Shown here piece after piece: positions 3,374-59,974 of a stretch of DNA of 64,000 nt. The position numbers were made by a program, and so were the translations under genes. The notes below the pieces were generated by a model. The model searched no databases, was not told the DNA's origin, and saw only the letters and a program-made list of their open reading frames with translations. Position 1 is the first letter of the stretch. The number at the start of each line of letters is the position of its first letter. The stretch is from NCBI GenBank assembly GCA_964424265.1, contig CAYRHX010000004.1:4081-68080 (forward strand). Reading direction: 5' to 3'. Source of the stretch: an uncultured Candidatus Saccharibacteria bacterium (GTDB taxonomy: Bacteria; Patescibacteriota; Minisyncoccia; Phycocordibacterales; UBA2100).

Positions 3374-4888
3374 TTATGCAAAGAGAATATACAAGGCTGC
3401 CAGCAATCCCAAGCTTGCGACCGCAACAGCCAGTATCGCATTAAAGAGCACTAGAGAGCGTATAGAACTTCTCGCACTCGGATTCCTTCCTATGGAAATC
3501 ACTCCATAGTTCGCGTCAGACATAAAACTCTTAAAGGCGAACGTGAGAGAGAGGATCGCTATAATTCCAGCAAGTAGATACCTGGAAATTCCAAAGACGA
3601 CCTCTGGATTGATTATACCCAACAAACGGCATGACAACGAAATACATTTAGGAGCGGATGCATTCACGTTCTCACCGACCGCAGCAATATTAACCAGGAT
3701 TGTTCCCGAGGGAATCTGTTTGCCATCGGGCCCTGCAAGTAATACGTTATTTTCTCCATTGAAATCTTCGGTAGCCACTGCAAATACGTTTTCGCCAGGA
3801 TTCGCGCGACGAGCCTTACCGGGGATTGAAGAAGACGTTAACGAATCGCCTTGGAAAACAGGCCCATTTTCCATAGTCACGTTCACCAACATTGAACCCG
3901 ATCGGGCTACGGGGACGTGCACCCCAGCCTCATCCGACGCAAATAAGATAGAAGGATCCTTGACGACCACGCCATATACACCAGGGTCGTTAGAGGTTTG
4001 TGTCTGCACAAATGAACTCGTTATCGGATCGAATGCAACAATATCACCGTAGGCAACGCGCGAACCACTGAATGGAACCTCTGTAGCGGTCAACCCAGGC
4101 AGTTGGATCAGAGCAGCTTGATTCGACGGACTTTCCGCCGCTAACACTCCTGCGGCAGCAGCCTGACTTGTTCGGATATTCTTTTGTGCGGCAACAGATG
4201 TATCTGACGTCGACGGGACGAAGTCCGAGTCGTGGCTCACCGCTGCCATATCTCCTCCGACATATGTGGCAAAAGATGTTGATGCGTATCGTTGTAAATA
4301 ATTCCACGAAAGCCGTACAGTATCCGTATAAGAAACTAAAAACCCTGAAAAAACCATGAAAACGACGACGACTGTCAACGATCGGCCCCAAAAATAAGCG
4401 CGTCGTACTCCCGCCGTAGTGCCTAAAAAACGCGCGCGATGCGTGCTCCTCCTGGATTCATTGACCGCGTAGGAGACTTGACCTTTATCCACGGCAGTTC
4501 GATCTGCGGCTGCGTCCACCATGAGCTCACGAACTTTTTCGAAACCTTCAGTCGGATTGTAGTAGCTAATACTCTGCGCAGGTAGAATCGAGCCCGGCAT
4601 AACAGAAGCTTCAGCAGCCTGATCAGCGGAAGGTACTTTTTTCAGGATGTACTCACGCCGCCTTATCTCCGCCAAGGATTTGTACCGTAGGCGCTCATAC
4701 TCGCGTTGTTGGGACAAGTAATTGCGAAGCTCCTCAGGCTCAACATACCAATTCTTGCCCACTCGACGACCGTGAACTTTATTTTCGCGACAAAGACGAG
4801 CGGCATAATCCTGTGTGATACCCTCTTTCAAAGAAGCTTCACTCGTTGTGATGTAGATCACCCCATCCAAAATTATGTCATCGCTCAT
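3374..4888 (-). CDS. Membrane protein with N-terminal HTH_17 (excisionase/MerR-like) domain, TM helix, extracytoplasmic domain and C-terminal two-helix hairpin
   Basis: 504 aa. N-term MSDDIILDGVIYITTSEASLKEGITQDYAARLCRENKVHGRRVGKNWYV is a paralog of the repeats in the 5377-6309 protein. TM at RSLTVVVVFMVFSGFLVSY. C-terminal hairpin ...GVISIGRNPSARSSIRSLVLFNAILAVAVASLGLLAALYILFA. Confidence 0.6.
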   Translation of the reverse strand: MSDDIILDGVIYITTSEASLKEGITQDYAARLCRENKVHGRRVGKNWYVEPEELRNYLSQQREYERLRYKSLAEIRRREYILKKVPSADQAAEASVMPGSILPAQSISYYNPTEGFEKVRELMVDAAADRTAVDKGQVSYAVNESRRSTHRARFLGTTAGVRRAYFWGRSLTVVVVFMVFSGFLVSYTDTVRLSWNYLQRYASTSFATYVGGDMAAVSHDSDFVPSTSDTSVAAQKNIRTSQAAAAGVLAAESPSNQAALIQLPGLTATEVPFSGSRVAYGDIVAFDPITSSFVQTQTSNDPGVYGVVVKDPSILFASDEAGVHVPVARSGSMLVNVTMENGPVFQGDSLTSSSIPGKARRANPGENVFAVATEDFNGENNVLLAGPDGKQIPSGTILVNIAAVGENVNASAPKCISLSCRLLGIINPEVVFGISRYLLAGIIAILSLTFAFKSFMSDANYGVISIGRNPSARSSIRSLVLFNAILAVAVASLGLLAALYILFA

Positions 4889-56430: not shown

Positions 56431-56635
56431 GTCGGTGAGCGCTTTCGGCGTATGTCTCTCCAGTTCTTGAGGCAGCTGACTGTCCGCTGCCTCGTCTGCG
56501 CACCACGATCCCCAACGCCACTACCAAAATCCCTGCAATCAAGAAAAGCACGGTATCCCAGCTCTGTGGAAATCCCAAAAACGGCAACGTAGCCACAAAC
56601 GCCCCCAACGTCATAAGAAGTGTGTCGACTGTCAT
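56411..56635 (-). CDS. Small two-TM membrane protein
   Basis: 74 aa. LLMTLGAFVATLPFLGF and VLFLIAGILVVALGIVV. Start overlaps RT stop region. Confidence 0.4.
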   Translation of the reverse strand: MTVDTLLMTLGAFVATLPFLGFPQSWDTVLFLIAGILVVALGIVVRRRGSGQSAASRTGETYAESAHRHEELAQ

Positions 56636-57666
56636 GCGGAAATTATACCATTACTTTTTCCCACCTGTCTTTTGCTCAATAATGACAACAAATTCTCCGT
56701 CAGCATCCACGCATTCCCATGCTCCAACATACCCGCATAAGATTGTATCGTCGGGCTTTCTTTCTCAAGTCTTGAGACACGTTTCTGCATCCTCCTCTTC
56801 GTACTCGTGCGAAGAACGCGATGATCGGGAAAGTGCACCCACCCGAGGAAATCAATGCCGGATGCGAAGGTCTGAATGGATACCTTATCGGGATGCAACG
56901 CAAGGCTGAGCTTCGCATCAAGAAACGTCTGGATGCGCGGCAGCAGTACTTCGAGGTCCGAACGTGAGGCAGAGAGAATCACAAAATCATCCGCATACCG
57001 AACGTAATGGTTTATTCGAAGCCGATGCTTCACGAATTGGTCAAATTCATTCATGTATACGTTCACGAGCAGCTGCGAGGTGAGGTTGCCGAGAGGCAGC
57101 CCTTTCCCTTCTTTGGTCGAATGAAAGCTACCGATGACTTCGGCGACAAGGGCGCAGATCCTCTCGTCAGGAATATAACGACCTACGATGTCGTTAATGA
57201 TGCGGTGGTCAATCGAGGCGAAGAACTTCTTGATGTCGCACTTGAGTACCCAGCACGTGCGGGTGTGGTTGCGGGAGACTTTCGCGGCAAGCTGCATGAA
57301 GCGTCCCATCGCTCGATGTGTTCCCTTTCCCTTCCTACATGAATATGAATCTGCGATCCATGTGCGGTCGAAGAATGGGTACAGTTTCCTGTACAGAGCG
57401 TGATGCAATAGTCGATCACGAACTGTCGCCTTGTGGATGTCTCGGGGCTTCGGATCGCTGATCTTGAATGCCTCGTACAGCCCGTGACGATACTTCCCAC
57501 CCGTAAGGTCACAATGGAGTGCGAAGACGTTGCCCATCAACTTGTATTGAAACTCTTGCACGTCTTGCTTCTTGCGTTTGCCTCTCACAAACTCCTTCCA
57601 TGCTGCGAGGAGATTCTCTACGCAAATGATATCCTCGTAGGTATGAGTGAGTTGGATGCGAGCCAT
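56632..57666 (-). CDS. Diversity-generating retroelement reverse transcriptase
   Basis: 344 aa. DGR-diagnostic LPLGNLTSQLLVNVYM ((I/L)GxxxSQ replacing QGxxxSP). Catalytic YVRYADDFVIL. TR located 418 bp upstream on the same strand. Confidence 0.9.
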   Translation of the reverse strand: MARIQLTHTYEDIICVENLLAAWKEFVRGKRKKQDVQEFQYKLMGNVFALHCDLTGGKYRHGLYEAFKISDPKPRDIHKATVRDRLLHHALYRKLYPFFDRTWIADSYSCRKGKGTHRAMGRFMQLAAKVSRNHTRTCWVLKCDIKKFFASIDHRIINDIVGRYIPDERICALVAEVIGSFHSTKEGKGLPLGNLTSQLLVNVYMNEFDQFVKHRLRINHYVRYADDFVILSASRSDLEVLLPRIQTFLDAKLSLALHPDKVSIQTFASGIDFLGWVHFPDHRVLRTSTKRRMQKRVSRLEKESPTIQSYAGMLEHGNAWMLTENLLSLLSKRQVGKSNGIISA

Positions 57667-57722
57667 CCCAGAAACCGTACCCCCCCCCCGCCCGATTCCG
57701 CAACAACAATTCGTGCCCGTCG

Positions 57723-58069
57723 TATCTAAACTTAAAGACGCATATCTAATCTGGCAAAGCTTTCTTCCCCATGTCGCGAAAGCTCATCGGCAAACGATTG
57801 CACACAGGATCGATACAGAGCTTTTAGAAACGCTGTCGTCGAGTTTTAGAGCTGCTTATCTAAAAGATGAGCGGAAGATTGCCGCTATAGAAGCCGCTCT
57901 TGCACGACTTGATCTTGCAAAATTCTTTTTGATTATTGGTTGGGAAATGAAAATGTTGACGGATTCACAATACGCACAGATCTCAGAGTATCTCGTGGAG
58001 GCAAGCAAAATGCTGGTGGGATGGAAAAACTATCTTGAAAAGAAAACTCCCGCGCAACGAGAACGTTGA
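57723..58069 (+). CDS. avd: Avd-like accessory variability determinant (four-helix-bundle / 23S rRNA IVS-protein family)
   Basis: About 115 aa from GTG 57723 (alternative ATG at 57656 would overlap the RT start head-to-head). C-terminal ISEYLVEASKMLVGWKNYLEKK matches the Avd hallmark (E.G+mLGGW.k). Sits between RT and TR but on the opposite strand. Confidence 0.65.
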
Positions 58070-58083
58070 TGGGAGAAAGACGT

Positions 58084-58197
58084 GAGTTTCTGACAACAAG
58101 GCGATTCTCGCGATTCCAGACGTTGTCGTTGTCGAGCGAGTTCACGTTGCGGTTCCACTGCCTGCCATTGCGATTCGCGTAGGCCACGGAGACTTTT
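58084..58197 (-). repeat. DGR template repeat (TR)
   Basis: 114-bp alignment with 58461-58574. All 21 mismatches (18 in the 58084-58193 core, plus 58194-58196) are at T on the plus strand, i.e. A on the minus/TR-sense strand. No non-A substitutions. Encodes Asn-rich ...VSVAYANRNGRQWNRNVNSLDNDNVWNRENRLVVRNS. Confidence 0.9.
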
Positions 58198-58415
58198 GTA
58201 CTCTGCGCCATCTGTACCACCGCCCATTGAGTTCTCTCCAGGCTGTATCTGATGCGGGGTCGTGAGCCCTCGAGCGTAGAGCACCAACTCATTTCTTTTT
58301 TGCGGGAATTGCACCCGAAACCTCGCCATTCCAAGCCAAAATAATAATTTGGGCCGAAAATGCCAGCGTGTTCTAAATAATTGTACCCCACCCGCGCGAT
58401 TGCGGATGGGGTACG

Positions 58416-58460
58416 GGACGCTCGAAGAAAGTGACCAAGGGTCACAGGTTCGAAGCGTCC
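58416..58460. promoter_or_regulatory. Nested GC hairpin immediately 3' of VR (DGR hairpin/cruciform-like). Second hairpin at 58383-58414.
   Basis: gtgacc-aag-ggtcac (58431-58445) nested within ggacgctcgaag...cttcgaagcgtcc arms. Adjacent gtacccca...tggggtac hairpin (58383-58414). Target gene stop codon lies inside the hairpin. Confidence 0.6.
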
Positions 58461-59083
58461 GAGTTGCTGACAACAAGGCGATGCCCGCGATCCCAGACGC
58501 GGCCGTGGCCGAGCGAGTACACGTCGCGGAGCCACTGCCTGCCACCGCGACCCGCGTAGGCCACGGAGACCGATCCGTCTGCGTTTTCGACGGGAAAGAA
58601 GTTGGCGAATCCGTCGGTTCGGAAGCCGAAGTCCTCACCGCCCTCCTGCTTCTTGACGAACTTCTCCTGCTTCTCGATCATCAGATCGATTTTCTGGGAG
58701 GCCAGTGTATGGCCTCCCTGCTTGAGGCGATTGGCGATCTCCTCGATCGTCGCGGTTTCGGGCAGCTTGAGGAGCGCGCGGAACATTTGCGCGAACATCA
58801 TGTTTTGACGGAGTCCGAATGTGGTCACCGACGTCGACCCGAGCGTCGTCTGCTTGACCGCGACGAACAGCGAGGGCTTTGGTTCGGAAGCCGCTGCCGG
58901 ATCCTTCGGGGCAAGAAGCTGGTCGAAGGCAACGGCAAGCAGCTCTTGAAGCTCGGCCCCCCTGGTATTGCAAGTCTTGATAACCTGGGCCGGATCACGA
59001 CCCTCGACCACTTGGGCGAGCGCTTTCGCGACTGGCCCGATGACTTCCGCGAATTGCGGGTTAGTGAAGGCTGTTCCACCCAT
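58442..59083 (-). CDS. DGR target protein (variable C-terminal about 38 aa)
   Basis: 213 aa. VR occupies the last about 38 codons. GAGGG RBS-like motif 8 nt upstream of ATG. No obvious signal peptide. Confidence 0.8.
   Translation of the reverse strand: MGGTAFTNPQFAEVIGPVAKALAQVVEGRDPAQVIKTCNTRGAELQELLAVAFDQLLAPKDPAAASEPKPSLFVAVKQTTLGSTSVTTFGLRQNMMFAQMFRALLKLPETATIEEIANRLKQGGHTLASQKIDLMIEKQEKFVKKQEGGEDFGFRTDGFANFFPVENADGSVSVAYAGRGGRQWLRDVYSLGHGRVWDRGHRLVVSNSDASNL
58461..58574 (-). repeat. DGR variable repeat (VR) within 3' end of target gene
   Basis: Counterpart of the TR. Encodes ...VSVAYAGRGGRQWLRDVYSLGHGRVWDRGHRLVVSNS. AAC/AAT codons of the TR appear as GGT/CTC/GAC/TAC/CAC/CGC/GAT/CAT. 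Confidence 0.9.
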
Positions 59084-59254
59084 GGTGGCTGTTCCCTCTG
59101 ATGCTGCCGCATGATTGCGTTTAAGGCATTGTCGATTGACTTTGCCACAGCGGAAAAAGGCCTATTTTAAGCCGCTTTCCGCCATGGCAAAATCCACCTT
59201 TTCTCAAAGAACGAGGGTAAATTTATACCACGAGATTTAGGTATCTCCAAATTT

Positions 59255-59974
59255 TCATTTTGTTTTTGAGCGAGAGCGGATTTCAATGATGACAACAAAC
59301 TCACCCCGGACACCTTTCTTTTTCTCCAACCGATCTGCTAGTTCGAGCGGCGTACCGACGAGCACTTCTTCGTGCATTTTAGTGATCTCACGCGCAATGG
59401 TCACACGAGCGTTCGGAATGAATTTTTCGATTTCAGAAAGTAGCTTGATGACTCGGTGCGGTGACTCGTAGAGCACGACTGTATATTCTGAAGTTGCGAT
59501 CTTTTTGAGTGCGGTCTGCCTTCCCTTCTTATGCGGAAGAAATCCCAGAAACGTAAAAGCGTCTCCTGTCATTCCCGCAATCGAGAGCGCGGCGGTAAGT
59601 GCGGACGGTCCTGGGATCGCATCGATCTTTGCTTCTGGAAGATTCTCGCGGATATACGCGACCAATCGCGCACCCGGATCAGAGACCCCAGGCGTTCCAG
59701 CATCGGAAACGTACACTACGTGTTCTCCCTTCTCAAGCCGATCAGCAATTTCTTTTGCCTTCGTGACTTCGGTCGATGCGTCGAGTCGAAATACCGACGT
59801 GCGAAGTCCGTAATGCGCGAGAAGCTTCGCAATCACGCGCGTGTCTTCAGCATAAATCGCATGTGCCTCTTTCAGATTCCATAATCCTCGAAAGGTAATA
59901 TCTCCCATGTTGCCAATGGGCGTCGCAACTATCGAAAGAGTGCCGGTGGTCGAAGAATCGTGCTCGTTCATCAA
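59255..59974 (-). CDS. rsmI: 16S rRNA (cytidine1402-2'-O)-methyltransferase
   Basis: 239 aa. LSIVATPIGNMGDITFRGLWNLKEAHAIYAEDTR is the RsmI/tetrapyrrole-methylase-fold signature. Confidence 0.85.
   Translation of the reverse strand: MMNEHDSSTTGTLSIVATPIGNMGDITFRGLWNLKEAHAIYAEDTRVIAKLLAHYGLRTSVFRLDASTEVTKAKEIADRLEKGEHVVYVSDAGTPGVSDPGARLVAYIRENLPEAKIDAIPGPSALTAALSIAGMTGDAFTFLGFLPHKKGRQTALKKIATSEYTVVLYESPHRVIKLLSEIEKFIPNARVTIAREITKMHEEVLVGTPLELADRLEKKKGVRGEFVVIIEIRSRSKTK

Follow-up and report, generated by a model that had tools for sequence, protein, structure and literature searches.

A run of ten cytosines lies between avd and the start of the reverse transcriptase (RT) gene in a diversity-generating retroelement (DGR) of an uncultured Candidatus Saccharibacteria bacterium. 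The element is found in the 64,000-nt stretch of contig CAYRHX010000004.1 analysed here (positions 4,081 to 68,080 of the forward strand), which is referred to as the window. The run would be placed twice over, between a conserved candidate ATG of avd and the body of the Avd coding sequence and, on the other strand, in the spacer of a predicted RT promoter. A slipped-strand change of its length would bring Avd into or out of frame, and the same change would vary the spacer of the RT promoter over 16-19 bp, with 17 bp in the in-frame alleles. The effects on frame and spacer together would make a heritable and reversible on/off, or high/low, switch of mutagenic retrohoming. We put such a slipped-strand switch, acting on Avd through the frame and on the RT through the promoter spacer, at slightly less than an even chance. 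The initial annotation of this DNA had proposed the C10 run as a slipped-strand phase-variation site that could toggle the DGR. The tract does prove to be conserved and variable in length, with consequences for frame and spacer, while the switching itself is what we infer from these properties. The interest of the C10 run is in its conservation, its variability and its dual placement, which go beyond what the initial annotation could see.

Conservation and length variation of the C tract

The tract occupies positions 57680..57689 and reads as C10 on the plus strand and G10 on the RT strand. It is the longest C or G run in the 64 kb, where the sole other run of at least 8 is a C8 at 61942. The positions first assigned to the run, to the RT start (CAT at 57664-57666 on the plus strand) and to a plus-strand ATG at 57656 were all confirmed. 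Related loci were fetched for comparison (20 from genomes, 50 from metagenomes, plus others). Among 42 distinct loci, extending down to 33% Avd identity, the tract is C8 in 4, C9 in 8, C10 in 13, C11 in 11 and C12 in 6, and in 33 of the 42 it is separated from the RT ATG by 13 nt. Degraded runs occur in a few lineages, and one sister lineage (L024/L068) has no run.

The length of the tract differs between very close relatives. Loci with an identical 400-nt avd flank carry C11 (L015) and C9 (L048/49) in one case, and C12 (L010) and C11 (L030) in another. An alignment of 2.26 kb with 98% identity contains no indel other than the tract. Within the species cluster of the window, C10 is found in the window itself, in L080, L081 and L085 and in protein record P0031, C11 in L083 and L084, and GT followed by C12 in L082; the Avd proteins of L082-L085 are identical despite the differing tract lengths. 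These lengths are those of assemblies, not of reads. Independent assemblies of the same strain agree on the length (L001/2/7, L016/43/44, L059-61, and the window with L080/L081), which argues against a pure artefact.

A pure tract that is kept while its length differs between near-identical strains, with both flanking frames open, is the pattern typical of contingency loci. The present run is longer than 8 nt, is placed, as judged from the sequence, where it could alter expression, and is polymorphic in length among near-identical genomes. Known homopolymer contingency loci include the C-stretch of the Bordetella fim promoter, the promoter tracts of Neisseria opc and porA, and the poly-G/C tracts within open reading frames (ORFs) of Neisseria pilC and of Campylobacter. 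The DGR tract resembles them in being a run of 8-12 G or C, located in a promoter spacer and/or a 5′ coding region, conserved as a tract but variable in length between close strains. It differs from them in that one tract would act on two face-to-face genes, and in that the object of control would be a mutagenesis machine rather than a surface antigen. Literature searches on homopolymers and on phase variation in DGRs turned up no account of a DGR controlled by a homopolymer.

Two further roles for the run were considered and rejected. As a Shine-Dalgarno (SD) sequence of the RT gene, the G run has a 13-nt spacing that is too long, and genes of the window generally lack SD motifs. As the spacer of a plus-strand promoter, the C run is flanked by no conserved -35/-10 pair at a workable distance in the aligned relatives inspected. 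In one locus (L033:1790-1810, compared with L032:1763-1815), a 53-nt deletion by the C run removes the RT start together with the avd start and promoter; this may reflect either a knockout that arose naturally or an assembly error at the homopolymer.

The avd start and the RT promoter

Synonymous sites are frozen in RT codons 8-18 (H8 CAT in 37/39 loci, D12 GAT in 33/33, I13 ATC in 41/41, I14 ATT in 34/41 and N18 AAT in 37/41) and vary freely in codons 24-40. Read on the plus strand, the frozen sites give A-TG-A-TATCCT-CGTAGGT-ATG, in which an extended -10 box is followed after 7 nt by a conserved ATG. The predicted extended -10 element of avd (TG-A-TATCCT, 57627..57635, plus strand) is antisense to RT codons 10-14, and the ATG (57643-57645) is the antisense of RT His8. 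The motif ATGATATCnTCGTAnnn is present upstream of this ATG in approximately 40 of 42 loci.

In 37 of 38 loci, no stop codon interrupts the frame of the conserved ATG before the run, whereas the other two frames are open in 6/38 and 7/38. In the run-less lineage, Avd starts at the same ATG, in frame, five codons before the Avd body. The body begins at a Val codon, and three-base periodicity, with an invariant second codon position, persists for 3-4 codons upstream of it. GTG is not enriched at this Val codon (19/36, compared with 20/41 and 15/39 at other Val codons), and no canonical start is found near it in 7 of the 42 loci. The open frame, the periodicity, the lack of GTG enrichment, the loci devoid of a nearby start and the run-less lineage all point to ATG 57643 as the best candidate for the avd start. 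If avd starts there, the tract lies inside its 5′ coding region. The initial annotation had considered that avd might begin at ATG 57656, in which case it would overlap the RT gene head-to-head. The overlap holds, but ATG 57656 is not conserved and the conserved candidate start is ATG 57643. Position 57723, from which the initial annotation also counted a product, is out of frame; Avd homology begins at GTG 57713.

Between the conserved ATG and the Avd body there are 69 nt in 8 loci, which places the two in frame; 15 loci have 70 nt, and the others between 66 and 72 nt. Relative to this ATG, the Avd body of the 38 tract-bearing loci is in frame in 11, at +1 in 19 and at -1 in 8. The window carries a 70-nt, +1 allele. 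From 57643 it encodes only MSELDASHPRNRTPPPPDSATTIRARRI, a 28-codon ORF (57643..57729, plus strand) whose ATG is predicted to be leaderless. The window allele would consequently be off or low, unless GTG 57647 or ATG 57656 is used. These two codons (57647..57658, plus strand) are in frame with Avd through the C10 run up to the ORF end at 58069, and might rescue Avd expression. Neither is conserved beyond the species cluster of the window, and both were rejected as the conserved avd start on this ground. In L078, also a +1 allele, the RT start has become the palindrome ATGGCCAT through a substitution, which also provides an in-frame ATG near the predicted 5′ end. The in-frame starts of such +1 alleles, including those of the window, could serve to compensate for the shifted frame.

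On the minus strand, the predicted RT promoter (57674..57703) comprises a -35-like TTGCGG (57703..57698), an 18-bp spacer that consists mostly of the G run, and a -10-like TACGGT (57679..57674) located 7 nt from the ATG. Across loci, the arrangement is TTGCrA, run, TAnnnT, 7 nt and ATG, with TAnnnT and TTGC conserved and the spacer varying within the 16-19 bp given above. The in-frame total of 69 nt always occurs with a 17-bp RT spacer (8/8).

A TAnnnT motif precedes candidate ATGs of the window by 6 nt in 9 cases and by 7 nt in 7, where other distances give about 2.5 cases, and few SD motifs occur in the window. Many long ORFs have the motif 6-7 nt before their ATG and no SD, for instance upstream of 42292, 43784, 53595, 6309, 62900, 46703 and 10381, from which it would seem that leaderless mRNAs are general in this organism. 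Since the geometry of a -10 box, 7 nt and an ATG is common in the window and SD motifs are scarce, avd and the RT gene both look leaderless. Their predicted starts (57643 on the plus strand, 57666 on the minus strand) are oriented towards each other, with an overlap of 24 bp. The predicted promoters are thus face-to-face and overlapping instead of simply divergent.

A length-dependent switch and its alternatives

Several observations weigh against a switch. Only 11 of the 38 tract-bearing loci are in frame and +1 is the commonest state, which means that most of the assembled populations would be off. This excess of out-of-frame alleles fits a mostly-off switch, or else a tract that is a fixed element or the site of recoding. 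A GTG or TTG near the Val codon in 35 of 42 loci provides a possible internal start. On the RT side, the -35-like element is modest, and the promoters named here were called by their likeness to consensus motifs, in a phylum for which promoters have yet to be characterised. Short-read assemblies can misstate the length of a homopolymer, and contigs L028, L031, L034, L041, L053 and L064 end at the C run or within a few bases of it, which is consistent with read-level length heterogeneity or with homopolymer sequencing failure. Finally, the loci share ancestry, so that the counts given here are not independent and overstate independence.

The tract might instead be a fixed cis element, either a rigid G/C spacer, a site for a protein at the RT promoter or a part of the avd 5′ leader. 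Translation of Avd would then begin internally, at GTG 57713 or close to it (or, in the window, at ATG 57656), the length of the tract would be tolerated noise, and the upstream ATG would open a short leader peptide. That the GTG or TTG codons of the 35 loci lie within a few codons of the Val codon agrees with this explanation, as does the position at which the Avd hidden Markov model (HMM) begins, namely the Val/Pro position. The three frames (11, 19 and 8 loci) are all well represented, as expected if the frame is irrelevant, and a sigma-70-type promoter could work with any spacer of 16-18 bp. However, neutral drift does not explain the purity of the run in most lineages, and the leader frame stays open as far as the run in 37 of 38 loci. 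The internal start itself is at odds with the Val codon showing no more GTG than other Val codons, with the seven loci that have no nearby canonical start and with the codon periodicity that extends upstream of the Val codon. We consider a fixed element rather unlikely. Constitutive recoding, whether by a +1 frameshift at CCC-C with poly-proline stalling or by RNA-polymerase slippage, would allow out-of-frame alleles to make a set fraction of Avd with no switching at the DNA level. CCC-C sequences are classic +1 frameshift sites, restrained by m1G37 and by elongation factor P (EF-P). The commonest state would need exactly a +1 shift (70 nt in 15 loci, +1 in 19/38) and the leader frame is open into the run, but eight loci would need the opposite shift and 11 would need none. 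Recoding also leaves aside the length differences that are seen in the DNA of near-identical strains. Moreover, phage Avd is needed in excess over the RT (pentamer to monomer, PDB 8UB7), which is a poor fit with a low-yield frameshift. Recoding appears distinctly improbable to us.

The length variation could also be an assembly or sequencing artefact at a G/C homopolymer, each lineage having one true length. The frequent contig ends at the run, in the six contigs named above, are what such an artefact would produce, and poly-G/N junk is present beside the run of L010. Yet the length is reproduced where one strain has been assembled independently more than once, the same alternative lengths can be deduced from protein records of separate origin, and differences of 2 nt occur. 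An artefact is less likely than either a fixed element or recoding, and we give it very little credence.

Avd, the template RNA and the rest of the element

The window contains a complete DGR on the minus strand, with a target gene and its variable repeat (VR), a template repeat (TR) and an RT gene. The RT (344 aa, 56632..57666) matches RVT_1 (E=3e-25). Its LGNLTSQ (residue 192) and YADD (residue 224) conform to the [ILV]GxxxSQ and YxDD motifs of DGR-type enzymes. The target gene (213 aa, 58442..59083) has its VR (58461-58570) at the 3′ end, and the TR is 110 nt long (58084..58193). At all 17 of 17 mismatches between TR and VR, read on the minus strand, the TR has A and the VR any base, as in other DGRs. 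The RT gene adjoins avd in all relatives. The presence of murC and murD among the neighbouring genes, together with the records of the relatives, places the DGR on the chromosome.

The plus-strand ORF found between the RT gene and the TR, here and in all related loci, is identified as an Avd, which would be a subunit of a chromosomal DGR of the type found in the candidate phyla radiation (CPR), with architecture B3. Its body spans 118 codons from the Val codon (57713..58069). Residues 24-127 match positions 2-103 of the 104-position NCBIfam model NF033474 (Avd; E=1.9e-10, 41 bits, cut-off 80), and Pfam PF22296 (bAvd) is matched with E=2e-6 and 28.7 bits (cut-off 40). These matches are significant and near full length, yet they fall under the curated thresholds of both families. 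An AlphaFold (AF2) model built from 20 homologues is a four-helix bundle with a predicted local distance difference test score (pLDDT) of 86. Its best PDB matches in Foldseek are phage Avd (4DWL) and a DGR ribonucleoprotein (8UB7), with target TM values of 0.84-0.88 and root-mean-square deviations (rmsd) of 1.6-2.0 Å; for 4DWL the values are 0.88 and 1.6 Å. Further structural matches are S23-IVS bundles. A PDB sequence search with the Avd profile returned no relevant match, so that the link to Avd structures comes from the fold comparison alone. The Avd-like nature of the ORF, as proposed in the initial annotation, is thus supported by the predicted fold, along with the sub-threshold profile matches. 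Like BPP-1 Avd (4DWL, 8UB7, PF22296, NF033474), the protein is a basic four-helix bundle of about 110 residues (computed isoelectric point 9.4) encoded beside the RT gene and TR of a DGR. It differs from BPP-1 Avd in sequence (about 15% identity, HMM scores below the curated cut-offs), in being encoded on the opposite strand and after the TR instead of before it, and in a possible 23-residue, proline-containing N-terminal extension.

The convergence of avd, on the plus strand, with the TR, on the minus strand, is as first described. The strand of avd opposite to that of the RT had been taken as unusual, whereas the reversed layout is common to all of the approximately 65 related loci. Architecture B3, TR-(avd)-RT with avd on the reverse strand, represents 90% of CPR DGRs in the survey of Wu et al. 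(2018, NAR 46:11, PMC5758913). The reverse orientation of avd is therefore already known and standard for CPR. The element of the window shares the gene order and the reversed avd of B3; the homopolymer, the overlapping leaderless promoters and the TR RNA unit are not described in the sections of that survey covered here. Relative to the avd stop codon, the TR starts at -2 to +36 nt across relatives. The avd ORF had been called the only one between the RT gene and the TR. Minus-strand ORFs do exist there (57933-58535 and 58030-58638), but neither has a family match. As candidates for a minus-strand accessory gene they were rejected, having no Pfam match and both crossing the TR and conserved RNA.

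A codon analysis of 46 distinct avd genes showed free synonymous variation except in the last conserved codons, which encode EKKTP and are frozen as GAA (42/42), AAG (40/43), AAA (42/42), ACT (36/41) and CCC (29/37). On the minus strand this frozen end reads GGGAG-UUUUCUUUUC; in 41/41 loci it supplies the 3′ side of a hairpin, with a U-tract after it. In the window, the stem-loop (58075..58047) and the U-tract (58046..58037) together span 58037..58075, just 3′ of the TR. The hairpin abuts the U-tract UUUUCUUUU exactly in 40/40 folded loci, with a mean folding free energy of -14.3 kcal/mol, and the sequences of the stem differ between lineages. The structure has the form of a predicted intrinsic terminator. 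A stem-loop just downstream of the TR has been read as Avd-binding and is present in 207 of 278 Avd-containing DGRs, CPR members included (Handa et al. 2024, bioRxiv 10.1101/2023.10.23.563531). The stem-loop directly 3′ of the TR is shared with these RNAs. In contrast to them, the stem-loop of the window directly precedes a U-tract and overlaps the last avd codons on the other strand, and the large structured domain lies upstream of the TR, not downstream.

This domain (58194..58372, minus strand, about 180 nt) opens with the invariant AACACGCUGGCAU, located 7-8 nt after a -10 box. The box is TATACT, TATATT, TATAAT or TACAAT, 7-8 nt before AACACGC, in 39 loci, and reads TACAAT in the window (58385..58380). 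The covariation model of the domain comprises 36 predicted pairs, of which 19 show compensatory changes, and 96.8% of cells are paired. This value was reached by 0 of 500 shuffles, and slid controls gave about 40%. An Rfam search of 56500-59300, with E up to 1, gave no match. The domain looks like the functional RNA scaffold of this type of DGR, located 5′ of the template instead of 3′ as in BPP-1. The TR RNA would thus form a self-contained unit of about 337 nt (58372 to ~58037) with its own promoter. If so, the RT gene needs a promoter of its own, and there would be no antisense read through avd, the TR RNA ending at the stem-loop and U-tract. The earlier suggestion that avd is antisense to a TR-RT read-through transcript is probably unfounded, given the stem-loop and U-tract of 41/41 loci and the lack of synonymous constraint further into avd.

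A G+C-rich hairpin with a 13-bp stem (58414..58383) follows the VR, and with the -10 box it covers 58380..58414 on the minus strand. Its 3′ arm overlaps the -10 box of the TR RNA in 39 loci. It may double as the terminator of the target gene and the post-VR hairpin known from other DGRs. Two other candidate features were rejected. A promoter-like match in antisense avd (57959..57932) falls on variable codons and is not conserved, and a long-range pairing between the A-rich segment at the 5′ end and the U-tract at the 3′ end is not accompanied by covariation in variants such as L022, L062 and L063. Insertions of 50-70 nt, some of them mutually related, are found in the 5′ domain on the minus strand in L012, L016, L046 and L029 (for example GCGACCAGTTTTTCTTCACGGTACTCTGTGTTAGAAAAATGAAG); they may be an extra stem or a small mobile insert. 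A small perfect hairpin, GTGACCCTTGGTCAC, at 58431-58445 (minus strand), overlaps the stop codon of the target gene just after the VR. In one species (L001:3640-3954, also L002 and L007), the RT is cut to 104 codons while Avd, TR/VR and a C11 tract are intact and 13 of 15 mismatches fall at TR adenines; this DGR may be decaying or complemented in trans. The signature of the 5′ domain is also present in a contig classed as viral (L079:247-300, IMG/VR IMGVR_UViG_3300049793_000046). This type of DGR may also be carried by CPR phage, or the contig may be misclassified.

To our knowledge, the regulation of DGR activity is largely unknown. Uncontrolled retrohoming would constantly rewrite a functional protein, and some restraint therefore seems necessary. 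The candidate novelty of this element is a phase-variable or recoded control of a DGR. More broadly, one could imagine, with considerable reserve, that throughout this CPR clade a single hypermutable tract sets both the avd frame and the RT spacer, so that hypermutation is phase-variable, mostly off and on in a subpopulation, and relies on a compact TR RNA with its structured domain at the 5′ end. Candidate promoters, a start codon and RNA ends are now defined for the commonest DGR architecture of CPR bacteria. A structured part of the DGR RNA upstream of the template would matter for the reconstitution and engineering of compact DGR systems. If the switch is real, a slippage-prone tract acting on Avd and the RT would provide a simple, heritable and reversible control of a DGR.

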